Assembly (NCBI GenBank): GCA_964360585.1
Contig: CAYHXC010000008.1
Coordinates: forward strand, 8 to 64,007
Direction of reading: 5' to 3'
DNA: 64,000 nucleotides
Source: an uncultured Candidatus Saccharibacteria bacterium
GTDB lineage: Bacteria > Patescibacteriota > Minisyncoccia > UBA6257 > 2-01-FULL-56-20
Positions 1-49,331 of this stretch are shown piece after piece. Made by a program: the position numbers and the translations under genes. Position 1 is the stretch's first letter, and every line of letters begins with the position of its first letter. The notes beneath the pieces are model-generated. The model was not told where the DNA came from. It saw only the letters and a program-made list of their open reading frames with translations, and did not search any database.

Positions 1-658
1 AAAGTCGCGACTATTTGGATATTATTGAAAGAGCGCCGGATACTTACGCCAAAGTTTCCGCAGATTGGCGGCAGGAAAATTTCATTATGGCCGTGTCGGT
101 TATATATTTTTTGCATAACCGAGAAAACCATCCTGATTTTCTGTTTCCTTGGTTCTTTCAGCTCCTCCGGCACAAGAACGGAAATATTCTACGTGTATAG
201 GCTGGTTACGGTAATAGTTCCAATTACCCTCCTTTACTGAAGCTCTGGCGGACGAGTCGGACGGGCAAGCGCCTGCCTGCCGGTAGGCTGGTCCCCTTCG
301 ACAAGCTCAGGGTAAACCACGTCGAGAGCCTTATGGGATGAACGGACACAAAACGTCCGTTTTTCTCTATGCTTATTTCCCCTTTTTAGCATAGTACACT
401 GGACAAAAAATACCGATGTTGTCCACTACAGTGATCCAACTGGTCAAAATCAGCTTTTCCGTAATGATACAAAAGTGTCATATTACGGAAACGCAGAGTA
501 AAAAGTCTTAGTTTACTGACTTTGTGCACCTTGCCCCTAGCGTATCAATTGCATCGCCTTTTTGTGTCAAGTCGTAATACAGATATCCTTATTGCACTTT
601 TTATGGATATCTGGTAATATGGGAATACGTATTTCAACTTAGATAAAACAGTAAAACT

Positions 659-1819
659 ATGGCAAACAAAGCGCAGCAAAATCACTTTATAGCGGGGACC
701 CACAAGAAGCACTTTTGGGGCAAAGACTACGAATATCGGAGTTTTTTGCCGTCCCCGGTTAATCGCCCTTATGAATGGCAGGACAAAAGAATCCCCGTCC
801 TCTTGGAAGAAGCGATCAGACTTGTCGGTGAATTGAATGCCTACTCCATCCTTGTTCCAGATGTAGATTTTTTCATTCAAATGCACGTACGTAATGAAGC
901 AGTGAAGTCAAGTCGCATTGAAGGTACTCGCACCGGCATGGATGAAGCCGTCTTGCCGGAAGAAGAAATCTCTCCAGAAAAAAGAGACGATTGGACCGAG
1001 GTGCAAAATTATATAAAAGCAATGAATACAAGCATTGCTCGACTTAGCGAGCTCCCAATCTCAATGAGACTTCTGCAAGGAGCTCACAAAATTTTGTTGT
1101 CTGGTGTTCGTGGCGAACACAAACAGCCGGGAGAAGTTCGCACTGGGCAAAATTGGATTGGTGGCACAAGTATTCAGACGGCCGCTTTCATTCCACCTCA
1201 CCCCGAAGATATGGGAGAGGCCTTAAAGGACCTTGAGTTCTTTTGGCATAACAAAGGATTGAATATGCCTCATCTGATCAAGATGGCGATTTCTCATTAT
1301 CAGTTTGAGACAATTCACCCCTTCAATGATGGTAATGGAAGAATTGGTCGTATGCTGATCGGACTTCATCTTATTGAACTTGGAATTCTACGAAAACCAA
1401 CACTATACCTTTCTGACTTCTTTGAAAGAAACAAAGGAGCGTATTATGACGCGCTCACTTTTGTGCGTGAGCGAAACGATTTGGATCAATGGATTGTATT
1501 TTTTCTCTCGGCAGTCATTGAAACAGCTAAAAAAGGCAAGGACACATTTGAGAAGATTATTGATCTACGCGCTCGCTACGAGAAACAAATTATGGAGCTT
1601 GGACGTCGGGCAAAACTGGCTCATAAACTGTTGTTGCAATCATTCTCTATGCCGGCATTTAAGGTTTCTAATGCCTCTAAATATCTGAATGCCTCGAATA
1701 CGGCAACCAATACTCTTGTCGGAGAAATGGAACGTGTCGGAATTCTTAAAGAAGTAACCGGTTTTTCCCGTAACCGGATTTTTGTCTTGCACGAGTATCT
1801 GGAGCTCTTTAAGAGATAA
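659..1819 (+). CDS. Fic/Fido family protein (putative AMPylase/toxin-like)
   Basis: Canonical Fic motif [12 protein letters not shown] in a 386-aa ORF. Confidence 0.85.
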
Positions 1820-1908
1820 AACCATGCCACAGAAAATTGCCAAATGATCTGCAAGATAGACAACCGGACTAAATCTGGAAATTAAATTTATGTTAAGTAA
1901 AAAAAATA

Positions 1909-2481
1909 ATGATCATAACCATAAAAATTATCCTAATATTTATAGTCCCTTTAATTCTAAGTTTGGTCATTCGGTCAAGTCATCATCAAACATATGAATT
2001 TGTGAATAAGGAAAGCAAAAGAATGGTTGCACCTACGGTGCCATATCCTTATTTGTCAGGTTTGTTTTCGGATATACTGCTTCAAATTGGCATAAGTCCT
2101 TATAGTTTTTGCATAGAAAACAATTCTTTTTCAAAAGAATATTCTCTGCCCCATGACTTAGCTTTTAGATTAGAGGGTGAGGCTGAGTTTAGTAAAATTC
2201 ACTACAGCGAAAAAAAATGTATACCCATACTTAAAAAAGATGTTTTCTACGATGTGGCATGGGGTGGCTTTGTTATTCCTAATAAAGAATGGGCAGACAA
2301 GAATTTTAAATGCGATTCTGGAAAGTGTTCACTAAATTTTAAAGTTGATGAAATTGTGAACTTCAATGTTTATTCACGATTAAATTTTCCAGCACTAATT
2401 ATTGTGTATATCCTTTTAGTCGCCGCCGTGTTTGGATTTGTTAAGCTTGCTATTTCTTTATACACTTTCATCAGGCCGTAA
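1909..2481 (+). CDS. hypothetical membrane protein, markedly AT-rich
   Basis: 190-aa ORF with hydrophobic N- and C-terminal segments; A+T-rich codon usage unlike neighbours. Confidence 0.4.
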   Translation: MIITIKIILIFIVPLILSLVIRSSHHQTYEFVNKESKRMVAPTVPYPYLSGLFSDILLQIGISPYSFCIENNSFSKEYSLPHDLAFRLEGEAEFSKIHYSEKKCIPILKKDVFYDVAWGGFVIPNKEWADKNFKCDSGKCSLNFKVDEIVNFNVYSRLNFPALIIVYILLVAAVFGFVKLAISLYTFIRP

Positions 2482-2864
2482 TTGTAATTGCCGCCGCCAA
2501 AAAATTCGCCAGCCCAAGCGAGAGCGAGGCGGGAACTGCAAAGCACATACAAGTCGAATCAAAACCCTAGTAGTACAGCATCCCCGTAGCAGAAACTTCG
2601 TTTCGCTACGGAACAAGAAGCTGACTACGGGGCAAGCAACCCCGAAGCAAACGCGATGCGTTGCAACGGGGCGAGCCCCATACCAGTTCGCGACGGGTAA
2701 ACCCGCCTTTGCCAGAGGCTACGGACGGGCAGGCAAATGGTAAATTCGTGGTGCCTTACACGTTCTCGTACTTGGCAAGCAGGCCTTGACACCATCTTTC
2801 AAAAAGTGCGGCCACGAGGAGATATTCGCACAGTGGAGTCCTGCGACGAGGAGTTAATCGGTTC

Positions 2865-2873
2865 TGTTATAAT
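2865..2873 (+). promoter_or_regulatory. extended -10 promoter element (TGtTATAAT) giving a near-leaderless transcript of the NADAR gene
   Basis: TGtTATAAT lies about 7 nt upstream of the ATG at 2880. Confidence 0.35.
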
Positions 2874-2879
2874 TTCACT

Positions 2880-3335
2880 ATGCACAGATTAGATACGGAA
2901 AAACAAATCTTTTTCTACGAGAATGAGTTCTATGTCTTCTCCAATTATTCTTCTTTCACCATCGAATGGAAAGGTAGCTTATATCCAACATCGGAACATG
3001 TATACCACTCTGAAAAATTTAATGACGAGAACCTAAAAGAGCAAGTGAGACTTGCGCGTTCAGCCCATGATTCGCAAAAGTTCGCGCAAGCGAATGTCGA
3101 TAAATACAGAAAGGATTGGAATCAAATTAGGATAGGTATTATGAAAGATATCCTTCTAGTAAAAGTTGAGCAACATCCCTACGTGAAGAAGAAGCTTCTG
3201 GAATCAGAAAACAAGGAACTTATTGAAGATTCCTGGCGAGATTCATTTTGGGGCTGGGGACCAAATAAAGATGGTGAGAATCGCCTTGGTAAGCTTTGGA
3301 TGGAAATCAGGAATGATTTTAGAAATAAGGAGTAG
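2880..3335 (+). CDS. NADAR domain protein (YbiA-like)
   Basis: YbiA-like conserved blocks: PTSEHvYHseKF and WGwGpnkdGeNRLGklWMEiR. Confidence 0.7.
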   Translation: MHRLDTEKQIFFYENEFYVFSNYSSFTIEWKGSLYPTSEHVYHSEKFNDENLKEQVRLARSAHDSQKFAQANVDKYRKDWNQIRIGIMKDILLVKVEQHPYVKKKLLESENKELIEDSWRDSFWGWGPNKDGENRLGKLWMEIRNDFRNKE

Positions 3336-3357
3336 TTTTTCATAATATAATCAGGGT

Positions 3358-3615
3358 ATGTCCGAAAAAGAAACGTTGCACAAAGTGCCAGTGGATTTAC
3401 GAAAAGCTCTTACTTCCAGCGCCGCGGCGCGAGCAGTATGGGAGGACATTACGCCACTGGCGCGCAATGAGTGGATTTGCTGGGTCATCTCCGGTAAAAA
3501 AATGGAAACGAGAGGTATCCGTATCGAGAAAGCGCTCTCAAAACTGAAAGGCGGCATGCGCCGGCCTTGTTGCTGGGTCGGCTGTGGACATCGTGGTTCG
3601 ACAAGCTCACCATAA
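3358..3615 (+). CDS. YdeI/OmdA-like small protein, copy 1
   Basis: 85 aa with ARNEWICWV...KKxETRxxRIxKAxSKLKGGMRRPCCWxGCGHR signature; one of three paralogs in the window. Confidence 0.6.
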   Translation: MSEKETLHKVPVDLRKALTSSAAARAVWEDITPLARNEWICWVISGKKMETRGIRIEKALSKLKGGMRRPCCWVGCGHRGSTSSP

Positions 3616-3854
3616 TTTTAGATTTTCCTGTTCTGTTGCAACTTATCTCGGTAGATAATGGAAACGAGCGCAAAACTGAGAATTAAGAGGAGGAACCAGG
3701 AGCCGATCTTATTGGCTGACGCACAAATCCAAAAAATCCTAGAACAACTTGAGAATCATGAAAAAAGTATAGCATCCTCGAAAAAAGAAAAAAGCCCGAT
3801 TACCACATGATGATGTGATAATCGGGCTCAAGTACTTTAGAACGGAATCACCTC

Positions 3855-4625
3855 TTAGCCTTCGATGAAGGCGGAGGCAACGAGCAGGTTTCGAAGTGAA
3901 ACCGGATCGTTCTTCGAGATGACGTGGAACTGAGGGATGAATTTGGCGACGTCCGCATGACCGCTTTCGATCTGCGCGATCACTTCGTCGGCCGCACGCC
4001 CCGTGCCTTCGACGAGCACTGTCGGCCAGCCGCGTCGTGCGGAGTGCATGATCTCATCTTTCGTGATAGGCCCGCCGTTCCAGGCGATGGTACCGAGAGC
4101 CTCGAAGCCGGCGTACGTCCTCCAGTGTTCCATCATGGTGAAGTAGGTGGGAACATCGAGGTCCCACTCTGCCTTACCGTCAGGACCATTCTGGACGATC
4201 AAGATGCCCAGCATGTCCGGATTTGGCACGGTTCCGTACTCGTCGAGCACGAGACGTGAGTCCTCCTGAAGTGAGAGCATGCTGGTGCGTGGACACGTGC
4301 CCAACGCGACACACCCCGGATTTTCCGAGGCGATCAGGCCCGGCACATCGGTGACCATCGGATCCACTTCGCCGTTCGCAACCTGACGCGTGCCGCCCGA
4401 CCAAGCCAGTCCTTCGAAACCTCGAAGAGCTTTCGAGAAAAACGAAAGCATTGCACGCTTGTCATCGGGTCCCATGCCTTTGCATCCGCCGAGGAAACGC
4501 AACGCCACCTTCTTTCGCGCGCGCGTACCCATGAGAGCGAATGCGGCGGGAAGACCATCGGTCGCATTCATCACGACCAGATGCACCTTCTCGCCATTCA
4601 CGTGATAAGGTCTCGTTCTATCCAT
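3855..4625 (-). CDS. divergent LOG/SLOG-superfamily Rossmann protein (paralog A)
   Basis: Glycine-rich motifs FLGGCKGMG, AWSGGTR and WNGGPITKDEI...VLVEGTGRAAD resemble the LOG GGGxGxMG / PGGxGTxEE pattern; compare canonical LOG at 48152. Start set at an internal ATG with a GGAGG SD. Confidence 0.5.
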   Translation of the reverse strand: MDRTRPYHVNGEKVHLVVMNATDGLPAAFALMGTRARKKVALRFLGGCKGMGPDDKRAMLSFFSKALRGFEGLAWSGGTRQVANGEVDPMVTDVPGLIASENPGCVALGTCPRTSMLSLQEDSRLVLDEYGTVPNPDMLGILIVQNGPDGKAEWDLDVPTYFTMMEHWRTYAGFEALGTIAWNGGPITKDEIMHSARRGWPTVLVEGTGRAADEVIAQIESGHADVAKFIPQFHVISKNDPVSLRNLLVASAFIEG

Positions 4626-4649
4626 TATTCCTCCTCCCATCGCTGGGTG

Positions 4650-5447
4650 TTATGTTCCGGTTCTTTCTACAAGCCGGAAACGTGACTCAGTTTTCGGCAC
4701 TATCGAAAGTTTCTCGAGTTGATGCCGAAGTGACATTTCCGTAAGTTCGGCAACGTGAACATGCGGATGCGCCAGAAGAAATTCTTTATCGTTTGCGTAG
4801 CGATCGGTCGTCCGACCACTACCGCGGATAAGAAGAACTGGCCACGCACGCTTTGCCCAAAGAAGAATTTCCTTTTCGGTAATACCTCCTCCGTTATAGG
4901 TGAGTAGAAGCGACCGCCACCCGCCACCATAGGTGACGAGATGCTGAACAATCTCTGCACACGTCTCATACTCCGTGTCCCAACAGCTCTTCTGATCAAC
5001 AGAAGCCTGCACGATGAGACACGTATCCTGATTCGGATGTGCAATGGTGAAGTAGGGATCTTCCGGATTATCCGCGACCACCAGTCCGTGTTGGGTGAGC
5101 TGAAGATCGCTTTGTCGTGCGACAACCCCGAGCGTGTATGAGTCGGGGCAGAGCTCACGAACAATGGGCGCAATCTCAGTAATGCCTAGAACAACCTTTG
5201 TGGGATCACTCCGGGAACGCATCTGTGTCCCTCCGAAGAGAACTGCTCCGCGGAAACCGCGAAACACATTCCCAAAAAGATTAAACATTCCTTGAGCATG
5301 CTCATCGGACATGAATCCACAACCGCCGGTCAGTCGAACAACGACAGTGTCTTTAGCCTTCGTGAGGCTAAGAGCCACCTTTACGGAAAGCTTTTCCCCC
5401 TCGTTTTCTATATACAAGGAGGGAACGTTTTTCACAGGAAAGCTCAT
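4650..5447 (-). CDS. divergent LOG/SLOG-superfamily Rossmann protein (paralog B)
   Basis: Paralog of previous (RLTGGCGFMSDEH, LFGGTQMRS, YNGGGITEKEI...LLIRGSGRTTD); strong SD aaggaggag upstream. Confidence 0.5.
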   Translation of the reverse strand: MSFPVKNVPSLYIENEGEKLSVKVALSLTKAKDTVVVRLTGGCGFMSDEHAQGMFNLFGNVFRGFRGAVLFGGTQMRSRSDPTKVVLGITEIAPIVRELCPDSYTLGVVARQSDLQLTQHGLVVADNPEDPYFTIAHPNQDTCLIVQASVDQKSCWDTEYETCAEIVQHLVTYGGGWRSLLLTYNGGGITEKEILLWAKRAWPVLLIRGSGRTTDRYANDKEFLLAHPHVHVAELTEMSLRHQLEKLSIVPKTESRFRLVERTGT

Positions 5448-5610
5448 GGATTCTCCTCCTTTTTTGATTCTGTTTTTTGAATTGTGAAGGGCTGAAACTA
5501 GGGCACATTATCATCTAATTTTAATGTATTGTCAATACCCTGGATATACACAACCCGCGCGGTAAGAAGCGTACGTTTACGTCTGTATATTTGTCCCGTA
5601 GAATGACCTC

Positions 5611-7545
5611 ATGACCCCTGAAAAACCACATGATGGTGAGGGAAATACAGAACGAGTAGAAAAATCACACCTTACCCCTCCCGCTCTCGAACTACTTCTT
5701 GACACAGGAGAAGCGGTTGTCTGGCCGGAAAAAATCAAAAACGATGTCGAGTTTGTAAAGCAACGAGAAGAACGGAAACAACTGATTAATAATTTGGAGC
5801 GAGTCACAGATCGATTACCTCGTCCTGATGTTTCTCTCCAAAACGCCGTAGCAGAAAAGATCATTAGTGAACCGGAAGTCGCTACTTTATATGAATCGCT
5901 ACAGAAACTCCTAGAAGACCCGGACTATGGGAGAGCTCTTCTCTATATTCCTTTTGAGTTCTTACCGAAATCAACGTGGAGTGCCGAAACAACGGAACTG
6001 AAAACGGCGATAACGGCATTCACGAATATCTATCTAAAAACATGGGAGAAACTTCTTCATTCACATGACGTACGAACAAATTTTGTTGATGGCGATATGA
6101 TCGAAATAGATTTTCGCGAAGGAGATGACTGGCCTCGTGTAGTCAAAGCAGCCCACCTTATACCACAACTTTTAGAGCACGATCTCATTACTACGGAACA
6201 GATATTCTCTCTGGCAGAAAAAACTAACGATACTCTTCTGAAGAGTACTATTGACGACGCATTGCTCGTAGCAGCAGATCTTGGTCGTCTCACTCCAGAG
6301 GATCGAGCCCGCATGCGATCGTCCAGCGATGAAGCTCTTCGAGGAACGGAAAAACTATTTGATGAACCCCTTGCAAACGAAAGCAACGTTACCGGACCAA
6401 TCGATTTTCAAGTGGTTGAGCAGGAGCTGAACACCACACTAGAGGAAGCCCGAACGGCCGACTACGGCTCCGTATCCCCCAACAGAAAAACCTGGCTGCA
6501 ACAGGAAAAACGACGACACCTCCTTGCAGCGGCCAGCCAGAAAATGTATCAGGCAATTGCTTCCAAACAACTTACTCCCGAGATTGGAAAAACATATATT
6601 GAAACCACCGGCAGTGCTATGGGAGAAGCTTGCATTGAAGGCATACGACAAGCAGTAGAAGCCGCTGTGGAAAAAGATCCAGGCAAGGGACAGCAACTCT
6701 TCGAGGAGTATCGCAATGTTATTACTACCGCTTGGAAAGAAAAACGAATTGAGACTCGGGATGCGTTAGGAAAACTATTTTTCCGCCTCAATACTCTCGG
6801 TGTTATCAATACTCAAGAACTAGAAACTCTGGGAATTGCTCGCCCAAATCTGGTTGGGCCATTTACAGAAAATCTGAAGTTCATGGAATCTGAAATGGGC
6901 GATGTGGATCGAATGTTGCGAGCGATCGAGAACAATCCAGGATTATCAGAACTCATTTATCCAGTAATTCTGATGCACGGGTCACGACTTAAGGGCTATA
7001 GCGCCGCCGAGTCTGATATCGACATCAGTATTATTGTTCGCCCCGAGGTGTCTGTCGAAGAACGCGAAAAGTTAGAGAAATTATTACAAGATGTATTTGC
7101 TCACGAAAAAATCCCTGAAAAAGTGATTGAATTTTGGCTCACCGAAAAAGACGGAAATCTATCCGTTCGGAATTTTGAAAAAAACGATCCTGCTTTAGGA
7201 GAATCCTCGTTTGTTCATATCTTATTCGGCGCCGTCTGGAAAGGCGATCCGAAAGTAGTTGAAGAATTACGAGAAAAATTACTAGTCCCCTATTTTTATC
7301 CGACTGAAGAAAAACTCTACGGCCGAGAGGCGCGAGATATTTATATTGAGCAGTTAGAGCGCGATGCTCTCCAATATCGACTCATGCACAAGGGTTATGA
7401 ACGATTCTTTCCGCGATTCGGAGGTGTCCGTTCGAAGCACGCTAACTTAATTGATGGTGAAAGTACTTTCTGGGACTCTGGGTATCGACAAACTGCCTTA
7501 CAGTTGTATGCCCGTCGAGTATTCTTGCCGAAACTGCAATCATAA
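5611..7545 (+). CDS. large protein with C-terminal Pol-beta-type nucleotidyltransferase (MNT/CD-NTase-like) domain
   Basis: hGS...GxxxxxSDxD NTase signature HGSRLKGYSAAESDIDISIIV in the last ~200 aa; ~430-aa N-terminal region of unknown function. Confidence 0.6.
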   Translation: MTPEKPHDGEGNTERVEKSHLTPPALELLLDTGEAVVWPEKIKNDVEFVKQREERKQLINNLERVTDRLPRPDVSLQNAVAEKIISEPEVATLYESLQKLLEDPDYGRALLYIPFEFLPKSTWSAETTELKTAITAFTNIYLKTWEKLLHSHDVRTNFVDGDMIEIDFREGDDWPRVVKAAHLIPQLLEHDLITTEQIFSLAEKTNDTLLKSTIDDALLVAADLGRLTPEDRARMRSSSDEALRGTEKLFDEPLANESNVTGPIDFQVVEQELNTTLEEARTADYGSVSPNRKTWLQQEKRRHLLAAASQKMYQAIASKQLTPEIGKTYIETTGSAMGEACIEGIRQAVEAAVEKDPGKGQQLFEEYRNVITTAWKEKRIETRDALGKLFFRLNTLGVINTQELETLGIARPNLVGPFTENLKFMESEMGDVDRMLRAIENNPGLSELIYPVILMHGSRLKGYSAAESDIDISIIVRPEVSVEEREKLEKLLQDVFAHEKIPEKVIEFWLTEKDGNLSVRNFEKNDPALGESSFVHILFGAVWKGDPKVVEELREKLLVPYFYPTEEKLYGREARDIYIEQLERDALQYRLMHKGYERFFPRFGGVRSKHANLIDGESTFWDSGYRQTALQLYARRVFLPKLQS

Positions 7546-7548
7546 AAA

Positions 7549-7583
7549 AAGCCGGACGATCACGAATGATTGTCCGGCTTAGG
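7549..7583. terminator. bidirectional rho-independent terminator
   Basis: aaaaaaaGCCGGACgatcacgaatgattGTCCGGCtta between convergent genes. Confidence 0.65.
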
Positions 7584-7610
7584 CTAACTACTAAAAAAGA
7601 ACTGTTGAGC

Positions 7611-8798
7611 CTAGAGACTGGTCTTGGCTTTGCCGCCGATGCCGGTGAGATCTCTTCCGCCATTGCGACGAACACCGCCACCGTCCAAGTGACTCCACGG
7701 AATCGCCACACCGAGCTGCCACAGCGCGGTGATGTAGGTGAGCTCCGTCTGGCCAACACTGACGTTCGGAAGCTCAATAACTCCCAGGGTGTAGCCCTTC
7801 AGACTCTGCTCGAGCCTGGGATAGTCTGATGAAACAGCCACTCCCAGCTGCTTGAGCATCTGATCGCGATTCAGTGCGCCGACCTGTGCCGGAAGACTCG
7901 GATTCTCCAGAGCCCTCCTGATCTGTTGAGCATCATAGGCCAATGCCATGGCCACGGGAATGCCCGTACCAGCAAAGATACCGTTGATGCTTGTGATCAC
8001 AGCTTCGGCTGCATCACGGAGACCGTCGGTGGGAGGCGGAGGCATCATTCCAGATGACAAACCTCCCGCCCCACCTGCCATACTGGCAAAGACGGCCATC
8101 ATGGTTGCTGGATTTGCCATTCCTTTCTGCCAGGAATCGATCCAGCCGACCAAGAGCTCTTGAAAAGAGATTAGGGACGGCCAAAGGTTGGTATCCATCT
8201 TGGCAAGCAGGGCTGTCTTGCGACTCTTCGTCGCGAAGCGGCCCGTTGGCCCTGGCATCGCCGCGAAGATCTCAGCATAGCTACGTTCGGTCAGGGTTCG
8301 CTGCATATCCCAGAACTCCGGACTGGCTGGTTCTTCGAGCGACTCGGCATTTCGCTCCATGGCAATGACGATCTTCTCAGGAAGGTCGTAGAGACCCACC
8401 CGATTGGCCAGCGCAGCACTCACGGTTCCAATGACCGTCTCGCGGTTGAACTTGAGAACTCCCCCAACCTTCAGGGCTGCGAGCCACGAAGTGTCGTCAG
8501 GAACGGGCGGCAGGACCCCCTCGAAGGAAATCCTTGCCATAGCAGCCGCGTCGGCCGGAGCGCTCACTGCCGGCTTCAGAGCCGCCAGCAGATTGCGAGC
8601 AGGAATTCGCTTCATCCCCGCTTCGATCAGATCGGCTTCGGTCAGTGCGCCGAGGTCTTCGACCTTGGTCACACCGAAGTCTTCCTTGATCTTGGCGATC
8701 ACATTCACGTCGGCGCCGTGCTCGATGAGCTTGGCGTCGACCGGATCCACTGGGGCTGGCTCTCCCGATGCTACGGGAGTGGTTTCCTCTGTTGTCAT
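7611..8798 (-). CDS. hypothetical protein (396 aa) with Gly/Pro-rich segment
   Basis: ORF trimmed to internal ATG (MTTEETTPV) preceded by AAGGAGAA; the longer form would overlap the upstream gene by >300 nt. Confidence 0.5.
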   Translation of the reverse strand: MTTEETTPVASGEPAPVDPVDAKLIEHGADVNVIAKIKEDFGVTKVEDLGALTEADLIEAGMKRIPARNLLAALKPAVSAPADAAAMARISFEGVLPPVPDDTSWLAALKVGGVLKFNRETVIGTVSAALANRVGLYDLPEKIVIAMERNAESLEEPASPEFWDMQRTLTERSYAEIFAAMPGPTGRFATKSRKTALLAKMDTNLWPSLISFQELLVGWIDSWQKGMANPATMMAVFASMAGGAGGLSSGMMPPPPTDGLRDAAEAVITSINGIFAGTGIPVAMALAYDAQQIRRALENPSLPAQVGALNRDQMLKQLGVAVSSDYPRLEQSLKGYTLGVIELPNVSVGQTELTYITALWQLGVAIPWSHLDGGGVRRNGGRDLTGIGGKAKTSL

Positions 8799-8808
8799 GC
8801 GCTTCTCC

Positions 8809-10197
8809 TTATCTGCAGAGTTTGTCCCGTTCAGTTGGGCCGAACGAAACCAGGCGAACGGGTATGCCCAGTTTCTGGCCAAGGATCCCCACACACAGAT
8901 CGTACAATATGTCACGATCGGCGGCAGGGGCGATATCAAAAGAGAATATCTCCGGCACGCAGTTTTGCAACTCGTGTCCAAGACATTCTTGAAAGGATAG
9001 TCGGGACAGATCCTCACCATGCCGCACACGCAATTCGCCGCTTGGCGTAAAATACGTAAAATCATCGGCACCTGAGTATCTGTCTGAGAGTGACCAGATT
9101 TTATTTTTCTGGATCTGATCAAACCAGGTTACGGCGAGACCGTCGAAGGCTTTAGTGCCGCCACACGCCTCGATGGCGTATCGCAACAACACCAGGTCGA
9201 GTGGACCCACTCGAGCTTTGCCTTGATAACGATTCTCTACCTTGTTGCTGCCCGGCAAGAGCTGCTCGCTCATGGCCGGATCAGCGGTTGGCATCGGTCC
9301 TGCTCCGTGGCGTATCTGATACGCCCGAGTGACGCCGATTTTTATCACCTCTCCACTGTATCCAGCTTCCTCGATCATCGCCCAAGTAAACTGAGGCAAC
9401 GTTCGAATGGCAGACACATGCGGATGAAAACCATAGTAGCGATCGGTGAGCACTCCGTGAGAACTCTCGACCACCACTACGCCATCACGATTAAGGATCT
9501 CTCGCCGGAGATAGTCTTGATCGACTATGTACACACGCTCCGCCGTTTCCCGAAAACGACTGACAACGTAATTCAGAAAACCATCATCTCCGAGGAGACT
9601 CAGTTCTTCCTGAACCACATCGCGGTCATCTTCTAGAAATGAACCCTCAATGATATGCACCAGATCACGACGAACGTATTCACGAATCGCCGCAATCTGA
9701 TCACGGAGGCAAGATCCCGAAAGATCTCGAGCGCGCACGGCGGTGTCAGGATAACGTTCGGCTTGCCGATACGCCTCGCCGACACCAGTACCAATCGTTC
9801 CGCGAGGATTATCCCCACGGGCCAGTTCTTTGATGCGAGAAGCGATGCCATGAAATGGCGTCGCACAGAGTGCATCTTCGTCGATAGTCAGAAGACCAAA
9901 GACTCCGTCGAGGCCACAGGCAAATTGCAACTGGGTCCCTTCGTTTAAGATACCTTCCGGCGTAACGACGAAGCGAGACGAAAGATGCGTCCTCGCTCCT
10001 TCGAAGGTGCCGCACCCCCACTGACTGAACGCGAAGCGATCGCCAGCTGAGGTTTGTACACCGTGACTTCCTTGAGCACCGCCAACTTTGATGATGGTGT
10101 GTGCTCGTCGCATCGAACTGATCTTGTGAATAATTCCACCCTTACCACCGTCACCAGGACCAAGGTCCGTGACGGTGTACAGCTTTTTTGTTGCCAT
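8809..10197 (-). CDS. adenylosuccinate synthetase (PurA) family homolog, divergent
   Basis: N-terminal GDGGKGG (PurA GDEGKGK P-loop) and VGGAQGSHG (PurA GGxNAGHT) blocks, plus PurA-like length; start set at MATKKLYTV. Confidence 0.6.
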   Translation of the reverse strand: MATKKLYTVTDLGPGDGGKGGIIHKISSMRRAHTIIKVGGAQGSHGVQTSAGDRFAFSQWGCGTFEGARTHLSSRFVVTPEGILNEGTQLQFACGLDGVFGLLTIDEDALCATPFHGIASRIKELARGDNPRGTIGTGVGEAYRQAERYPDTAVRARDLSGSCLRDQIAAIREYVRRDLVHIIEGSFLEDDRDVVQEELSLLGDDGFLNYVVSRFRETAERVYIVDQDYLRREILNRDGVVVVESSHGVLTDRYYGFHPHVSAIRTLPQFTWAMIEEAGYSGEVIKIGVTRAYQIRHGAGPMPTADPAMSEQLLPGSNKVENRYQGKARVGPLDLVLLRYAIEACGGTKAFDGLAVTWFDQIQKNKIWSLSDRYSGADDFTYFTPSGELRVRHGEDLSRLSFQECLGHELQNCVPEIFSFDIAPAADRDILYDLCVGILGQKLGIPVRLVSFGPTERDKLCR

Positions 10198-10233
10198 ACC
10201 ATCACGTCCTTGATCCTGGTTGAGGGTCAACCC

Positions 10234-11367
10234 TTAGAGCCAACCGCCGTCGGGCTTGGTAGCAGTAGATTTACCCTTCTTCTTCGACAAACCGCCAAGT
10301 TCGGCGGCTTCGTCCGCATTGACCGGCCAGAGGTCGGTTTTGGTGTGGAAGATGTCACCTTTCTTTGGCTGCCTGTTGAAGTTCGGTAACGCTTTCTGCG
10401 CCCCGAGTGGAATGCTCGAAACCGCACTTAGAATCATCGCCACCTCTCTCTCTGTCAGATTCTGATGACCCAGGAAATCCTTGGCCGATCGAAGATCCAA
10501 CGTTCCTTCCGTGAGACCGATGATCGTGGCCATCGCGTACGGAGCGTGCTGGACTCGAGACAGACGGATGAGTCGATCCTTTCCGTAGAGATCCCGCCAG
10601 AAAGCGGGAGCACCCGGATTGGGATCGACGATCAGGATGAAGATGTGCGCTTGCTTCGTCAGCTCACGCACGACGTCCCGTGTTTCGGGAAGGTCGCGCG
10701 GATCAATCTCGTAACCGTTCTCTTTGACCTTGTCGAACACCTCAGATCCGTAGATCTGCTTCAGAGCGGCCGCCTCCAGTCTTTCGCGTGCCGGCGCATC
10801 GGTGATCGTGAAGTCGTACGACTTCAGACCAATCAGCCGTTGGTAGGCGCGGGTCAAGTAGGCAGCCCCGAAAAGTCCGTAGTGCGGATCTTCGGGTATG
10901 TCGCCGCCTTGTCGGATCGGGTTCATCAGAGTCAGCTGATTGACCATCCGATCGGCCAGCACTTCGAACTGTCCACGACACATGATGAATTGGTCGTCGA
11001 CATCATTGAAGACACCCGCACAGTAGAACGGATCTCGTCCAGAAAGCACTTCGGCGACGGGCTCGCACAATGCCGGCAAAGCCGCCAAGGCCAAGTCCAC
11101 ATTGTCGCCCATCGACGATGTCGTATCGAGACGATACTCGATCGAAACTGGCGAACCGACAGCGACCTCGAAGAGGCCGTCCGATCGGTCGAGGAGACGA
11201 ATCCGCGAAGGACGGATGACCCCGTACTGAGCTGGATCAACCAGCGGGTCGAGCTTGCCGGTTTTCTTGACCGTTTGCTCCCCACGCACGGTTACTGCAG
11301 CTCCCCTGGTCGTCAGCTTTGACGTCGTTTCCTCGAATGTAGTTCTCGAAAAACCACCTTTGGCCAT
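10234..11367 (-). CDS. vWA-like domain protein (TerY-like)
   Basis: Putative MIDAS-like D-T-T-S-S-M after a hydrophobic strand; start at M3 with GAGGAG SD. Confidence 0.4.
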   Translation of the reverse strand: MAKGGFSRTTFEETTSKLTTRGAAVTVRGEQTVKKTGKLDPLVDPAQYGVIRPSRIRLLDRSDGLFEVAVGSPVSIEYRLDTTSSMGDNVDLALAALPALCEPVAEVLSGRDPFYCAGVFNDVDDQFIMCRGQFEVLADRMVNQLTLMNPIRQGGDIPEDPHYGLFGAAYLTRAYQRLIGLKSYDFTITDAPARERLEAAALKQIYGSEVFDKVKENGYEIDPRDLPETRDVVRELTKQAHIFILIVDPNPGAPAFWRDLYGKDRLIRLSRVQHAPYAMATIIGLTEGTLDLRSAKDFLGHQNLTEREVAMILSAVSSIPLGAQKALPNFNRQPKKGDIFHTKTDLWPVNADEAAELGGLSKKKGKSTATKPDGGWL

Positions 11368-11379
11368 GTGCATTCTCCT

Positions 11380-12198
11380 CTAAAGCGGTAGGGTGGTGAA
11401 AGGATAAAATCCCCTCTCCCACAGTTGATCAACGAGTTCGTAGAAGTCCCGATGGGCTTCCTGAGCACTACGATGACCGTTCTCTCGAAGGACCATCAGG
11501 TACTCACTGTACTGATCGAACTCTTTACTTCCGTCTCCCGGAATGCCTCCTTCATCTGTGCCGCCCAAAACTGCAAAAACAGTTTGGGCTGCGGCCTTCA
11601 CCTCCTCAGACGCATCGATCCGAGTCACACCGTCGGGGTGTCGCTGGGCGTTTCCCCAGTTGAACACCAAAACGCCATGCTGGCTTGGTTCGATGAGAAC
11701 GTTGCCTGGAGTGATCTGGTTAATGGTGATGTCTGCGCCATGTGCGAAAGCGACAATCTTCAGAAGTTTGCCTAGGATCCAAACGCTGGACCGAAGGTCA
11801 ACCCTCTGTTGGTCTCGGTGCACAACGTTGTGCAAGGGCACCATTCTCCGTGTGTCGTCGATGTTCCTGAAGGCAAGCACATTGGCCCGCCGCTCCCCCT
11901 GTTCGGTCAGCAAGAAGCTGTCGACTAGGGCAGGAAAACCGAGCTCATAGTGGAGTTTACTCTCCGGGTTGGTCTTGATCTTGGTATACATCTCTTCCAA
12001 CTCACCAGCTCGCGCCAAAAGTTGTTCGAGAAAATACGCTCCGCGATCAAGCATGCCATTCTGAGCAACATCCGTTGCCACTTGCAGTAACTGCCCTTGA
12101 CCGTCCCCCTCTGGCGAGCAAAGGTACAAACGGTACTCGGGTGTTTCTGCGACACGATCGCCAACATGGTACATACGTGAACCATTTCTAACGATCAT
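11380..12198 (-). CDS. protein kinase-like fold protein, divergent (possible pseudokinase)
   Basis: Catalytic-loop-like HGADITINQITPGNVLIEP (cf HRDLKPxNIL) and VHRD, but no clear DFG Asp; strong SD GGAGGTG. Confidence 0.35.
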   Translation of the reverse strand: MIVRNGSRMYHVGDRVAETPEYRLYLCSPEGDGQGQLLQVATDVAQNGMLDRGAYFLEQLLARAGELEEMYTKIKTNPESKLHYELGFPALVDSFLLTEQGERRANVLAFRNIDDTRRMVPLHNVVHRDQQRVDLRSSVWILGKLLKIVAFAHGADITINQITPGNVLIEPSQHGVLVFNWGNAQRHPDGVTRIDASEEVKAAAQTVFAVLGGTDEGGIPGDGSKEFDQYSEYLMVLRENGHRSAQEAHRDFYELVDQLWERGFYPFTTLPL

Positions 12199-12362: not shown

Positions 12363-12596
12363 TTGAATCATTGTAGTTTGGTGAGCAGTTCATCGGAACA
12401 AATCCTACTGAACCGAGGCGCCGCGGCACGAGCAGTATGGGAAGACATGACGCCCCTCGCCCGCAACGAATGGATCTGTTGGATTATTTCCGGTAAAAAA
12501 ATGGAAACGAGAGGTATCCGTATCGAGAAAGCGCTCTCTAAACTGAAAGGCGGCATGCGCCGGCCTTGTTGCTGGGTCGGCTGTGGACATCGTTAA
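12363..12596 (+). pseudogene. YdeI/OmdA-like paralog, copy 2, N-terminally diverged or truncated
   Basis: Shares the C-terminal 60 aa and a ~107-bp near-identical nucleotide block with copy 1; lacks the HKVPxDLRKAL N-terminus and only a TTG/GTG start is available. Confidence 0.4.
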
Positions 12597-13888: not shown

Positions 13889-14131
13889 ATGGTCAGAAAA
13901 GGAATAGTACATAAAGTGCCGGCGGACTTACGCAAAGCTCTGATTGCAACACCCGCGGCGCGAGCAGTATGGGAGGATATTACGCCTTTAGCGCGCAACG
14001 AATGGATCTGCTGGGTCATATCTGGCAAAAAAGCGGAAACGAGAATTATCCGTATCAAAAAGGCACTCTCAAAACTAAAAGGCGGCATGCGCCGACCGTG
14101 CTGCTGGGCCGGTTGCGGTCATAGAAAATAA
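13889..14131 (+). CDS. YdeI/OmdA-like small protein, copy 3
   Basis: 80 aa with the same signature as copy 1; more diverged at nucleotide level. Confidence 0.6.
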   Translation: MVRKGIVHKVPADLRKALIATPAARAVWEDITPLARNEWICWVISGKKAETRIIRIKKALSKLKGGMRRPCCWAGCGHRK

Positions 14132-45726: not shown

Positions 45727-47154
45727 ATGTCACAGCGGTCTGATTCGTTGCCCACCATCTTCGTCATCTTTGGCGCCACTGGCGACTTGGCGAGTAAAAA
45801 AATTCTCCCCGCCCTCTACCGTCTCCACGCCAAGAAACTTCTCCCTCCCCTTTTTCAGATCGTCGCTTTTTCACGGCAACAGCTCACTCCGGACGATTTT
45901 CGAAAAAAAGTTCGCGAGCTTCCGGCATTTAAAAATCATCGCCACAGCTCCAGTCTCACTTCCTTTTTAAAACTCATTACCTACACCCAGGGAGTGTTCG
46001 GGGAAAAGAAGGGGTATGAAAATCTGGCGACGCTCTTGGGCGCCAAAGATCAAGCCTGGCGAACCTGCGCCAATAAACTGTTTTACCTCTCCACCTCGCC
46101 GGAACACTACGTTACGATCTTTAACCACTTAAAGAGTTTCGGCCTTACCATCCCGTGCAGTCCCGAAGAGGGCTGGACACGAGTCGTCGTTGAAAAACCG
46201 TTTGGTAAAGACACCAAGACGGCCGAAGCACTCGATCTTTTGATGGGCAAACTGTTCAAGGAAGAACAGATCTATCGTATCGACCACTATCTCGGCAAAG
46301 AAACCGTCCAGAATATTCTGGCTTTTCGTTTTTCAAACTCAATTTTCGAGCCCGCTTGGAATCATAATCACATCGAAGCCATCTCGGTTCGCGTTCTTGA
46401 AAAAGACGGCATCGGTTCGCGCGGTGAGTTCTATGACGCCACGGGCGCCCTCCGCGACTTCGGACAAAACCATCTTCTCCAACTGCTGGCGCTCTTTACC
46501 ATGGATAATCCCGGCACGCTTGATGCCAAAAAGATTCACCGGAAACGCGCGGAAATTATCCAGGCCCTTCAGCCGTTTACTTTAAAAGACGTGGCCCAAC
46601 ACTCGGTTCGCGGCCAGTACGCAGGATACAAAAAACAATCGACCATTTCTCCCCGCTCGCTCACCGAAACCTACTTCCGCCTCCAGGCAAACCTCACTAC
46701 GCCGCGCTGGAAAGGCGTCCGCGTTTATTTGGAAAGCGGTAAAAAAATGTTCCAGTCGCTCGCGACCGTCACCGTCACCTTCAAATCCCCCACACCCTGC
46801 CTCTGTCCGGCGATCGGCGAAACTACTCATTACCAAAATGTCTTGAAGTACCACATCCAGCCGGACGAAAAAATAAAAATCTCTTTCTGGGTCAAAAAAC
46901 CGGGAACGGAAATGTTGGTTGAGGAACGCGATTTTGAATTTGATTACAAACGCGCCTATCCCGGCGCCGGTTTTCTCGATCCGTACGACAAGCTCCTCCA
47001 GGATGTAATCGAGGGGAACCAAACACTGTTTGTTTCGACCGAGGAGATCAAGGCCAGCTGGCAGTTTATTGATCCGATTGTTCGCGGCTGGAAACGGAAT
47101 GCCACACCACTCATCATCTACAAACCGGGTCAGAAGGAAATGAATCTGTATTAA
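45727..47154 (+). CDS. zwf: glucose-6-phosphate 1-dehydrogenase
   Basis: IFVIFGATGDLASKKILPALY, RIDHYLGKE. Confidence 0.9.
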   Translation: MSQRSDSLPTIFVIFGATGDLASKKILPALYRLHAKKLLPPLFQIVAFSRQQLTPDDFRKKVRELPAFKNHRHSSSLTSFLKLITYTQGVFGEKKGYENLATLLGAKDQAWRTCANKLFYLSTSPEHYVTIFNHLKSFGLTIPCSPEEGWTRVVVEKPFGKDTKTAEALDLLMGKLFKEEQIYRIDHYLGKETVQNILAFRFSNSIFEPAWNHNHIEAISVRVLEKDGIGSRGEFYDATGALRDFGQNHLLQLLALFTMDNPGTLDAKKIHRKRAEIIQALQPFTLKDVAQHSVRGQYAGYKKQSTISPRSLTETYFRLQANLTTPRWKGVRVYLESGKKMFQSLATVTVTFKSPTPCLCPAIGETTHYQNVLKYHIQPDEKIKISFWVKKPGTEMLVEERDFEFDYKRAYPGAGFLDPYDKLLQDVIEGNQTLFVSTEEIKASWQFIDPIVRGWKRNATPLIIYKPGQKEMNLY

Positions 47155-47155
47155 A

Positions 47156-48097
47156 ATGAAAAAAGAAATCGCTTATATCGGTTTGGGAAAGATGGGAAAA
47201 AATATGGTGCTTCGCCTCTTGGAACATGGCTGGCGGGTGCATGTTTTCGATACCGACCAGACAGCAGTTCGAGAAGTCGTAAAAATGGGGGCGCGTCATC
47301 TCGCTTCGCTACAAGAAATTTCCCGCCTTCCAAAACCTCGTCTCGTCTGGGTCATGGTTCCCGCCTTCGTTCCTGCTTCGGCGGGCAAGCCGGCGGGAAA
47401 ACCGGTTGACGACGTTCTCTTCGGAAGGAGTGGTCTTACCTCCATTCTAAAAAAAGGAGATGTCGTTATTGACGGCGGTAACTCGTTTTTCGAAGACACG
47501 CTTCGCCGGGCAAAAAAAGTTCAGGCAAAAAAAATAGAGTTTATGGATATCGGCACGTCTGGCGGACCACGCGGCGCACGAAATGGCGCCTGTCTTATGA
47601 TCGGCGGCGATAAAAAATTATTTATCAGACTGAAACCGCTCTTCGAAGATCTCGCCGCGCCTCACGCCTACGCCCACTGCGGGAAAGCCGGTTCCGGACA
47701 CTTTGTGAAAATGATTCACAATGGAATCGAATACGGCATGATGCAGGCAATTGCTGAAGGATTTAATCTGATGAAACACTCGTCCTTTAAACCGAATTTG
47801 AAAGCAGTGGCTGAACTGTATAATCACAAGAGCGTCGTCGAATCCCGCCTCATTGGCTGGCTTAAGGAAGGATTCGATATCTATGGCGAGAACCTTCAAG
47901 CTATTTCCGGCACTGTTGGCGCAACGGGCGAGGGTGAGTGGACGGTAAAAACGGCGAAAAAAATGAAACTGCCCGTGCCAATTATCGAAGGCTCTTATAT
48001 TTTTCGGTTGCAATCGAAAAAGAACCCAAGCTATGCGGGAAAAGTACTCTCGGTAATGCGCCACCAGTTTGGCGGCCACGAAGCCAAACGGAAGTAG
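47156..48097 (+). CDS. gnd: 6-phosphogluconate dehydrogenase, short (~300 aa) form
   Basis: IGLGKMGKNMVLRL, GTSGGPRGARNGACLMIGG. Confidence 0.85.
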   Translation: MKKEIAYIGLGKMGKNMVLRLLEHGWRVHVFDTDQTAVREVVKMGARHLASLQEISRLPKPRLVWVMVPAFVPASAGKPAGKPVDDVLFGRSGLTSILKKGDVVIDGGNSFFEDTLRRAKKVQAKKIEFMDIGTSGGPRGARNGACLMIGGDKKLFIRLKPLFEDLAAPHAYAHCGKAGSGHFVKMIHNGIEYGMMQAIAEGFNLMKHSSFKPNLKAVAELYNHKSVVESRLIGWLKEGFDIYGENLQAISGTVGATGEGEWTVKTAKKMKLPVPIIEGSYIFRLQSKKNPSYAGKVLSVMRHQFGGHEAKRK

Positions 48098-48151
48098 GAA
48101 AAAAGTGAAAAACAATGTAGTATTAGGGATATAAAAATTCCGCTGTTTCGT

Positions 48152-48886
48152 ATGCCGCAACACAATAAGAACAAACTGTCCAAAAAACCAACCTATCCCC
48201 CAAGGCGCGTTGAGGAGATCCTCGGCCAGCATGAAGACGATACGTCGCCGTGGCGCATTTTCAAGATCATGACCGAGTTCGTCTCCGGCTTTGATTTCTT
48301 AAAGCGCTATGATACGGCGGTGAGCATCTTCGGTTCCGCTCGGTTTAATCCCAAGAGCCACGACTACAAAGAAGCCGAAAAACTGGCCAATCGCTTGGCT
48401 AAAGCCGGCTTTGCGGTGATTACCGGCGGCGGGCCCGGCGTGATGGAAGCGGCGAACCGCGGCGCCTATCTGGCCCATGGCAAGTCGATTGGCTTCAACA
48501 TTCAACTCCCCCAGGAACAACGGATTAATAAGTACGTCACCGACTCCCAGTCATTTTATTACTTTTTCGTTCGCAAGGTGATGCTGGCTTTTGCTTCGGA
48601 AATCTATATCTTTTTCCCCGGCGGTTTCGGCACCATTGATGAGTTTTCGGAAATTGTCACGCTCGTCCAGACTAAAAAAATAAATCCGGTGCCCATTATT
48701 TTGATCGGCAAGGATTTCTGGCAGCCCTTCTTAAACTGGATCGAAGAAACAGTCTACCAGAAGTATCACGCGATTGATCGAGAAGACATGAAGATCTATC
48801 ATATTGTCGACAGCTCTGAAGAAGCTTGGGTCCTTGTTCAATCCCTCATGAAAAAACATAAACTCCAGCGCGGCGATATTCATTAA
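48152..48886 (+). CDS. LOG family (TIGR00730) cytokinin riboside 5'-monophosphate phosphoribohydrolase-like protein
   Basis: Canonical LOG motifs VITGGGPGVMEAANRGA and FPGGFGTIDEF. Confidence 0.85.
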   Translation: MPQHNKNKLSKKPTYPPRRVEEILGQHEDDTSPWRIFKIMTEFVSGFDFLKRYDTAVSIFGSARFNPKSHDYKEAEKLANRLAKAGFAVITGGGPGVMEAANRGAYLAHGKSIGFNIQLPQEQRINKYVTDSQSFYYFFVRKVMLAFASEIYIFFPGGFGTIDEFSEIVTLVQTKKINPVPIILIGKDFWQPFLNWIEETVYQKYHAIDREDMKIYHIVDSSEEAWVLVQSLMKKHKLQRGDIH

Positions 48887-48890
48887 AACT

Positions 48891-49319
48891 ATGTCTGAAT
48901 CACAGGAAAGTTACGTTAAAAAAGTTCCCAAACCGTGGGGTCACGAAATCCACTGGGTACCGGATGGATTTCCCTACATGGGAAAAATTCTTCACTTGGA
49001 CGCGGGTAAACAAACTTCTCTCCAACGCCACAACAAAAAACAAGAAAGTTGGTTCCTGATGCAGGGTGAGGCGAAAATTATCTGGGATAATCCTGTGGGA
49101 GAGATGGTGGAAACCATGATGCTTCCCGGCCAAGGATATTCCTGCGCGATTGGTCAAAAACACCGCCTCATGGGAGTGACCGATTGCGATATCATCGAGA
49201 TCTCCACGCCGGAAATAGGAATCACGGAACGCCTTGAAGATGATTACCAACGGCCGGATGAGACGGAGGAGATGCGGAAATTGGGTAATCGGGGCTGGGG
49301 AGATCACGACTACGCCTAA
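48891..49319 (+). CDS. cupin domain protein
   Basis: Cupin two-motif pattern with His residues (HWVPDG..., ...HRLMG). Confidence 0.55.
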   Translation: MSESQESYVKKVPKPWGHEIHWVPDGFPYMGKILHLDAGKQTSLQRHNKKQESWFLMQGEAKIIWDNPVGEMVETMMLPGQGYSCAIGQKHRLMGVTDCDIIEISTPEIGITERLEDDYQRPDETEEMRKLGNRGWGDHDYA

Positions 49320-49331
49320 TATTTTTCTAGC

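Follow-up and report, generated by a model that had tools for sequence, protein, structure and literature searches.

The closest described relatives of the two proteins studied here are the MHR1/2 domains (Pfam LSDAT_euk) of the TRPM channels. The proteins, SLOG-A and SLOG-B, are encoded by tandem genes in a 64,000-nucleotide stretch of contig CAYHXC010000008.1 (hereafter the window), which derives from an uncultured Candidatus Saccharibacteria bacterium in the 0.1-µm fraction of Hainich groundwater. Both belong to the SLOG superfamily, as TRPM-type members, and are not LOG, DprA or YpsA proteins. They share with MHR1/2 a Rossmannoid SLOG core, the GGxxT loop and an arginine at the position of TRPM2 R358. 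However, SLOG-A and SLOG-B are soluble, stand-alone proteins of about 260 residues that occur as an obligate paralog pair, and not as the N-terminus of a channel, and they keep a LOG-like glutamate that the channels lack.

LOG and PpnN (Pfam Lysine_decarbox) also belong to the SLOG superfamily and resemble SLOG-A and SLOG-B in their glycine-rich loops and in a GGxxTxxE-type motif with its glutamate. LOG enzymes hydrolyze the bond between a base and ribose-5'-phosphate, and this chemistry is the model for the activity that we propose for the pair. Unlike LOG, the AlphaFold (AF2) models of SLOG-A and SLOG-B show extra β-strand insertions that would make up a TRPM-like second lobe, and the two proteins probably assemble as a heteromer, whereas LOG proteins are homo-oligomers.

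Prokaryotic LSDAT/SLOG proteins were reportedly described by Burroughs et al. (2015) as sensors of conflict systems, fused or linked to effector or transmembrane (TM) modules. Thoeris ThsA and other SLOG sensors of such systems share with our pair the fold, ligands derived from ADP-ribose, whether predicted or shown, and gene contexts related to nicotinamide adenine dinucleotide (NAD) and ADP-ribose (PMC9503650). The same 2022 survey describes the SLOG domains predicted to process ADP-ribose derivatives as experimentally uncharacterized (PMC9503650). In contrast to the ThsA-type sensors, the pair has no fused or adjacent effector (SIR2, TIR or SLATT/TM) and no PADLOC match, and sits in NAD-salvage operons and housekeeping neighborhoods of Patescibacteria.

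NAD salvage operons regulated by NrtR were reportedly described by Rodionov et al. (2008; cited in PMC9503650). In other genomes the pair lies inside operons of this kind, together with NrtR, pncA-like, pncB, nadD/nadM-type adenylyltransferase and nadE genes. Unlike the known NrtR regulons, for which our literature search found no SLOG/LSDAT member, these operons include the pair; the pair of the window is not beside these genes. The search also returned no paper that describes the pair or links SLOG/LSDAT proteins to NAD-salvage or NrtR operons.

The SLOG-A/SLOG-B operon, fold and predicted pocket

The genes of the pair and the expression signals around them are as follows.

3792–3829, minus strand: intrinsic terminator of the A–B operon, a 17-bp stem followed by a T-run
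3855–4625, minus strand: SLOG-B, 256 aa, paralog of SLOG-A and gene 2 of the pair; its open reading frame extends to 4640
4630–4638, minus strand: Shine–Dalgarno (SD) sequence of SLOG-B, GGGAGGAGG, 12–20 nt past the SLOG-A stop codon, read from the sequence
4650–5447, minus strand: SLOG-A, 265 aa, stand-alone LSDAT-type (TRPM MHR1/2-like) SLOG protein, gene 1 of the pair
5453–5463, minus strand: SD of SLOG-A, AAAGGAGGAG, read from the sequence
5507–5535, minus strand: sigma-70-type promoter of the A–B operon, TTGACA-17-GATAAT, from a promoter scan (11 of 12 matches)
5526–5538: perfect palindrome GTATTGaCAATAC, which contains the −35 box of the SLOG-A promoter, read from the sequence

The two proteins are true paralogs, as the initial annotation had claimed. 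They are 30% identical over 243 residues (BLASTP, E of 1e-33), and comparison of their profiles gave an E-value of 6e-49. The promoter (5535–5507) and the hairpin terminator (3829–3792) set the bounds of the transcription unit, so that by these sequence signals SLOG-A and SLOG-B make up a stand-alone bicistronic operon. Both SDs are strong, again as annotated. For SLOG-B, the ATG at 4625, giving the 256-aa protein, is more likely to be the start than position 4640, because the SD falls within the first five codons of the longer frame and because gene callers picked the 256-aa form on identical contigs. The palindrome occurs only once in the window, within the 163-bp region common to SLOG-A and a divergently transcribed nucleotidyltransferase (NTase) gene, and is a candidate operator.

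Profile searches placed both proteins in the Pfam family LSDAT_prok (PF18171, described as 'SLOG in TRPM, prokaryote'), with 32.5 bits for SLOG-A (E of 6.8e-8) and 35.7 bits for SLOG-B (E of 6.7e-9) against a gathering threshold of 25.4 bits. The match covers the C-terminal half of the model only. A lack of any significant LOG or SLOG profile match, which the initial annotation had named as its refutation, is thus not observed. Every homolog searched, 38 of SLOG-B and 15 of SLOG-A, matched the same model at E ≤ 0.01, and five of the 38 SLOG-B homologs also matched LSDAT_euk. Among PDB sequences, the best matches to the SLOG-B profile were TRPM8 and TRPM2 (E of 5e-4 to 1e-3), with the best LOG-like entry, 1rcu, at an E-value of 0.11.

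Confident AF2 predictions were obtained for SLOG-B (predicted local distance difference test, pLDDT, of 94.9; predicted TM-score, pTM, of 0.92) and SLOG-A (pLDDT of 89.5). Foldseek comparison of the SLOG-B model to the PDB returned the MHR1/2 regions of the TRPM2 chanzyme, TRPM8 and TRPM4 as the best matches (E of 5e-10, query TM-score, TMq, of ~0.66). For SLOG-A, TRPM MHR1/2 (E of 6e-8) accounted for all of the best matches bar the top one. Overall, TRPM2, TRPM4 and TRPM8 superimposed on both models with E-values of 5e-10 to 1e-7 and TMq of 0.5–0.68. The top structural match of SLOG-A was chain 6A of PDB entry 9nw3, a 256-aa LSDAT-like protein from the ciliary-tip central pair of Tetrahymena. 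This chain is a stand-alone protein; therefore stand-alone LSDAT proteins exist in eukaryotes too.

The initial annotation described the proteins as divergent LOG/SLOG paralogs, of which the SLOG half holds. The canonical LOG protein of the window (48152–48886) showed no measurable similarity to SLOG-A or SLOG-B (BLASTP E > 2, hhalign probability of 0.6%), and none of 53 family members matched the LOG family model PF03641 (Lysine_decarbox). A LOG identity was rejected on these three tests. DprA (DNA_processg_A) and YpsA were likewise rejected, with no match for SLOG-A, SLOG-B or the 53 homologs.

The glycine-rich motifs are present as annotated: TGGCGFMS and NGGGITEKEI in SLOG-A, LGGCKGMG and NGGPITKDEI in SLOG-B, compared with TGGGPGVME and PGGFGTIDEF in the LOG protein of the window. 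Across 58 SLOG-A and 75 SLOG-B sequences they belong to a near-invariant set that both paralogs share, namely R-x-x-GGC-x-x-M, GGT, T, W-x-x-[ED], NGG-x-x-T-x-x-E and G-x-G-R, in which a Cys, a Glu, an Asp/Glu and an Arg are invariant in both subunits. Since the same set is found in both paralogs, both subunits look ligand-competent.

Alignment of hidden Markov models (HMM) places the invariant GSGR arginine (R210 in SLOG-B, R212 in SLOG-A) at human TRPM2 R358, a residue which contacts both phosphates of ADP-ribose (PMC6759353). An invariant tryptophan (SLOG-B W154, SLOG-A W156) lies 2 residues past the position aligned with TRPM2 Y295, and an acidic residue (SLOG-B D157, SLOG-A E159) lies 5 residues past it. 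The TxxE glutamate, invariant in SLOG-A and SLOG-B alike, aligns with Thr339 of TRPM2 and with an Ala of TRPM8. In the LOG protein of the window, the motif PGGFGTIDE carries the matching glutamate; by motif position and order of secondary structure rather than by a significant alignment, SLOG-A and SLOG-B appear to keep the Thr and Glu of this motif and to replace its Pro with Asn. Of the two catalytic LOG residues to which the initial annotation drew attention, both paralogs appear to retain the glutamate, and no RK arginine was located. Each subunit appears to retain a complete TRPM2-type nucleotide pocket, and the predicted ligand is a diphosphate-bearing ribonucleotide derived from NAD, such as ADP-ribose or an NAD-like molecule. 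Some role with a nucleotide is very likely.

Pairing and NAD-salvage context in related genomes

The family is small, with 378 matches at E ≤ 1e-3 among 1.84 billion representatives; nearly all of the best 150 of these 378 are stand-alone proteins of 240–300 aa, and the named sources are mostly Patescibacteria. We compared 62 related loci, from which, the window included, 33 non-redundant loci with at least 4 kb of flanking sequence were obtained, and assigned the neighboring genes by all-against-all comparison, Pfam searches and tblastn mapping. In every related locus with room for both, the SLOG-A ortholog lies directly upstream of the SLOG-B ortholog on the same strand, and in two loci (L004 and L005) the stop and start codons of the genes overlap. 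The orthologs of A and of B are each 37–66% identical to the window proteins, compared to ~30% between A and B. From this strict co-inheritance, the co-translation signals and the ancient duplication we infer that the two proteins form a hetero-oligomer.

No fusion to effector or TM modules (SLATT, TIR, patatin and others) was found among the best 150 of the 378 representatives, and no conserved neighbor of this type at the compared loci. Rare fusion proteins of another kind exist: P0254, P0270, P0276 and P0280 (640–801 aa) carry a C-terminal A-type SLOG domain behind a common conserved N-terminus, which gave a weak GNAT match in one of them.

NAD-salvage or NrtR genes are found at 14 of the 33 non-redundant loci. 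NrtR, PncA-like proteins, NAPRTase and NMNAT/NadD each occur at eight loci and NadE at five, and loci with such clustering include L014–L016, L021, L033, L012, L001, L022 and L026. By a rough estimate, which assumes a handful of NAD genes in a genome of ~1000 genes, chance would place a NAD gene within 8 kb of the pair at well under 10% of loci, against the 42% observed.

The clearest NAD operon containing the pair is that of an Uhrbacteria genome (L014). On a single strand it encodes NrtR, an isochorismatase (PncA-like), SLOG-A, SLOG-B, an NMNAT/NAD-kinase fusion, NAPRTase, an uncharacterized protein, a radical SAM protein and glutamine-dependent NadE. A 13-gene operon (L021) adds PP2C-like, kinase-like, long PncA-like and vWA-like genes before the pair, where the PP2C-like assignment rests on an N-terminal motif. 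In L001, L022 and L026, NrtR is the immediate neighbor of the pair. Enzymes of ADP-ribose metabolism are also found nearby, ARH in L007 and NADAR in the window and L042. The remaining loci have housekeeping neighbors, for example L19, RecO, RuvX and adenylate kinase.

The additional genes of the 13-gene operon form a recurrent set beside the pair in NAD-salvage operons, comprising PP2C-like, kinase-like (~620 aa), PncA-like (344–363 aa) and vWA-like (265–283 aa) proteins (L021 1046–5715; L012 5220–9100; L001 13967–18744; L037 1–2059). The set recalls a vWA/PP2C/kinase signaling triad within a metabolic operon. In hhalign comparisons, the protein IsoLike363 joined the PncA-like proteins (98.5%), and the vWA-like protein of L005 joined a 276-aa protein of L012 (96%).

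Rfam matched no RNA element, either in the window region or upstream of the pair in nine loci. Six loci carry an element, GTTCTTTGA(C), directly 3' of the −10 box in the promoter upstream of SLOG-A (L001 ~9860, L011 ~8754, L030 ~7117, L047 ~91, L052 ~1937 and L053 ~2460). This element is absent from the window and has no Rfam match. A riboswitch would not fit in the short leader of three of these loci, and the element is therefore perhaps an operator or a motif of the transcription start.

Our favored reading, which we put forward tentatively, is that SLOG-A and SLOG-B form a hetero-oligomeric TRPM-type SLOG protein that binds ADP-ribose or an NAD-like nucleotide and functions in the recycling of NAD, most likely as an N-glycosidase feeding PncA. 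The pair would belong to a NAD salvage and recycling network under NrtR control and not to phage-defense signaling. A LOG-like N-glycosidase of this kind would cleave a pyridine nucleotide, nicotinamide mononucleotide (NMN) or NAD, or an ADP-ribose derivative, and the freed nicotinamide would feed the PncA, PncB, NadD and NadE route that is encoded around the pair in other genomes. We favor an enzyme because the pair is placed between enzymes in a metabolic operon (L014), because the Cys, Glu, Asp/Glu and Arg are invariant in both subunits, because a glutamate is kept that the TRPM channel sensors are without, and because the pair has neither an output domain nor a constant partner besides each other. 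The initial annotation had offered a nucleotide-modification pathway as its alternative; this comes nearer the mark, although the pathway indicated is NAD/ADP-ribose recycling.

We know of no firmly assigned bacterial gene for an NMN or NAD glycohydrolase step feeding PncA. In Patescibacteria, whose genomes are reduced and which rely on salvage, the pair is a candidate to fill this gap in the pyridine-nucleotide cycle. Prokaryotic LSDAT proteins would also gain a concrete physiological setting, NAD/ADP-ribose recycling under NrtR, and this setting, if correct, would help to explain the gating of TRPM2 by ADP-ribose.

The NTase module and the surrounding block

Beyond the NTase gene, transcribed divergently from the pair, lies a convergent operon of four genes. 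Together these five genes form a second conserved module.

5611–7545, plus strand: NTase, 644 aa, with a C-terminal Pol-beta-type domain (GS-x11-DID) and an N-terminal region of ~440 aa
7611–8798, minus strand: SAM-like protein, 395 aa; final gene of the four-gene operon, with a weakly matching SAM-like domain at the N-terminus
8809–10197, minus strand: PurA-like protein, 462 aa, a divergent adenylosuccinate synthetase
10234–11373, minus strand: vWA-like protein, 379 aa (conserved at ~377–379 aa), with an invariant RLDTTxSMG
11380–12198, minus strand: pseudokinase-like protein, 272 aa, with a protein-kinase fold; first gene of the four-gene operon

The NTase matches Pfam Polbeta (E of 5.5e-6) and, weakly, the NCBIfam model of MntA, and has 38 homolog clusters; a search of PDB sequences gave nothing useful for its N-terminal region. 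The SAM-like protein matches SAM_TNK at an E-value of 2.5e-5, slightly under the gathering threshold. The PurA-like protein matches Adenylsucc_synt (E of 7e-32) and PurA in the PDB (E of 2e-13), and scores 71 bits against the NCBIfam purA cutoff of 395. The 379-aa protein had no match in Pfam, NCBIfam or the PDB; at the level of the motif, its RLDTTxSMG resembles the metal ion-dependent adhesion site (MIDAS) of vWA domains. The 272-aa protein gave weak kinase matches in PADLOC and NCBIfam, and its profile matched the catalytic-loop region of CK2 (E of 4e-6) in the PDB. Its alignment shows that the HRD and DFG aspartates are not conserved, and the protein is probably a pseudokinase. The 379-aa protein and the NTase were also compared with the PncA-like and kinase-like proteins of the other loci and are not related to them.

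The adjacency of the pair and an NTase, which the initial annotation had pointed out, is real and recurrent. The NTase is found at four of the 33 pair loci (the window, L004, L026 and L045) and at least one gene of the module at five (adding L022). In L045 all seven genes of pair and module are collinear, with the module at 277–7041. The module members keep similar sizes across loci (~620–650 aa for the NTase and 370–398 aa for the MIDAS-like protein), and the SAM-like gene is kept with the NTase in L004, L045, L063, L064 and L065. The module also occurs without the pair, at L063, L064, L065 and the P0305 locus. NrtR adjoins it in L026, L065 and the P0305 locus, and in the latter the module is flanked by NrtR, NAMPT, Nudix and NadM-Nudix-like genes. 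Pair and NTase thus belong to separate modules, both with links to NrtR and NAD, and do not make up a generator and its sensor. Telling apart two modules that resemble one system guards against annotation of the locus as an NTase/SLOG defense system, and brings to light a second NrtR-linked set of conserved genes.

A bolder version of the NAD-recycling proposal, which we consider unlikely as a whole, would have a two-subunit LSDAT enzyme cleave NMN, NAD or an ADP-ribose derivative and so close the pyridine-nucleotide cycle of Patescibacteria, with the TRPM domain descended from a NAD-recycling enzyme and the NTase module acting as a second NrtR-controlled NAD/ADP-ribose pathway.

The seven-gene block that contains pair and module (3855–12198) has a GC content of 0.47–0.56, compared to 0.42–0.49 in its flanks, and lies among three copies of an OmdA/YdeI-like gene.

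3358–3615, plus strand: OmdA/YdeI-like gene, copy 1 (Pfam OmdA, E of 4.6e-16), repeat family D1
12363–12596, plus strand: copy 2, with a diverged N-terminus, found by tblastn
13889–14131: copy 3

These copies are 71–79% identical over 246 nt, and copies 1 and 2 flank the block in direct orientation. The pattern suggests an acquired or recombination-prone island. Two further genes near the SLOG operon encode proteins tied to defense or ADP-ribose metabolism, a Fic protein (659–1819; PADLOC SoFic model, E of 4e-111) and, just downstream of the operon, a NADAR-domain protein (2880–3335; E of 1e-28).

Alternative explanations

Several observations weigh against a NAD-recycling enzyme. The nearest characterized relatives, TRPM MHR1/2, are non-catalytic sensors. 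No counterpart of the LOG RK-motif arginine was located in SLOG-A or SLOG-B, a family which is not alignable to LOG, and the aromatic-clamp residue Y295 and the ribose-coordinating R302 of TRPM2 align, in the HMM alignment, with variable positions and so are unmatched by conserved residues. At roughly half of the loci both NAD genes and the NTase module are missing, and no NrtR or canonical NAD-salvage gene is present within the 64-kb window; therefore the NAD link rests on the other genomes. Kinase-like, PP2C and vWA-like genes are often beside the pair, which suits a regulatory role too. The island-like pattern of the window (GC content, repeats, nearby SoFic and NADAR) is the main point for a conflict system. 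The main rival is a non-catalytic sensor of NAD status, which we regard as possible but rather unlikely. Here, binding of ADP-ribose or NAD, in the manner of TRPM2 MHR1/2, would let the A/B hetero-oligomer modulate partners by protein contacts, with the kinase-like/PP2C/vWA-like triad, the NMNAT–NADK fusion or the NTase module as candidate partners. In its favor, the ligand-sensing TRPM domains are the nearest relatives in both sequence and fold, the diphosphate-binding arginine is conserved, and the neighbors include kinase-like proteins (8 of 33 loci), vWA-like proteins (5 of 33) and the PP2C-like gene of L021. The SLOG domain of Thoeris ThsA, a sensor of cyclic ADP-ribose, also keeps the motif glutamate, which favors the same view. 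However, such a sensor would be without an output domain or any constant partner but its paralog, and about half of the loci lack these neighbors. The very high conservation, with Cys, Glu, Asp/Glu and Arg invariant in both subunits, and the insertion of the pair among the enzymes of a metabolic operon are more typical of an enzyme, and Patescibacteria have small genomes with few stand-alone regulators.

The initial annotation had likened the pair to a sensor or effector of an NTase-linked conflict system, and this we consider improbable. In such a system, infection would lead the NTase to produce a nucleotide signal that the SLOG pair senses or breaks down, and the block would be a defense island. 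Module and pair are found together in the window and in L004, L022, L026 and L045, even though these loci are rearranged; the GC content of the block is above that of its flanks, with OmdA-like direct repeats around it; SoFic and NADAR are nearby; and integrases border the NTase module at two loci, L064 and P0305. Predicted anti-ADP-ribosylation conflict systems also contain Nudix-wHTH regulators and vWA proteins (PMC9503650). On the other hand, the pair has no fused effector (TIR, SIR2, SLATT/TM, nuclease or patatin) and no effector as a conserved neighbor. PADLOC gives nothing for the pair and only weak PDC-S09 matches for the NTase (E of ~1e-3), with no match to the cyclic-oligonucleotide-based antiphage signaling system (CBASS) or to a CD-NTase. 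The logic of CBASS or Thoeris needs generator and sensor together, whereas 29 of the 33 loci have the pair without the NTase and four loci have the module without the pair. In the window the two have separate promoters and divergent transcription, and the conservation of the pair is unlike that of fast-evolving defense sensors. Because of the missing PADLOC match and the housekeeping neighbors (L19, RecO, RuvX, adenylate kinase), the pair is not a typical defense gene. A pathway for a modified, cytokinin-like adenine is less probable still, and we give it very little weight. The PurA-like protein would make an N6-substituted AMP-type nucleotide, from which the SLOG pair would free the altered base, in the manner of LOG with cytokinin riboside monophosphates. 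SLOG enzymes of the LOG clade act on N6-modified AMP by cleavage (PMC9503650), the motif glutamate is retained, and a PurA-like gene shares the block with the pair in the window, L022, L026 and L045. However, most pair loci lack this gene, the PurA-like module is also found without the pair, the family is not LOG in any profile test, and the retained TRPM2-type diphosphate-binding arginine favors a dinucleotide-like over a mononucleotide ligand.

The LOG protein of the window itself (48152–48886) has the motifs TGGGPGVME, RK and PGGFGTIDEF and is encoded in an apparent pentose-phosphate operon (45727–50632), together with G6PD, 6PGD, a cupin-type glucose-6-phosphate isomerase and TruB. Its context is one of sugar-phosphate metabolism, not signaling.

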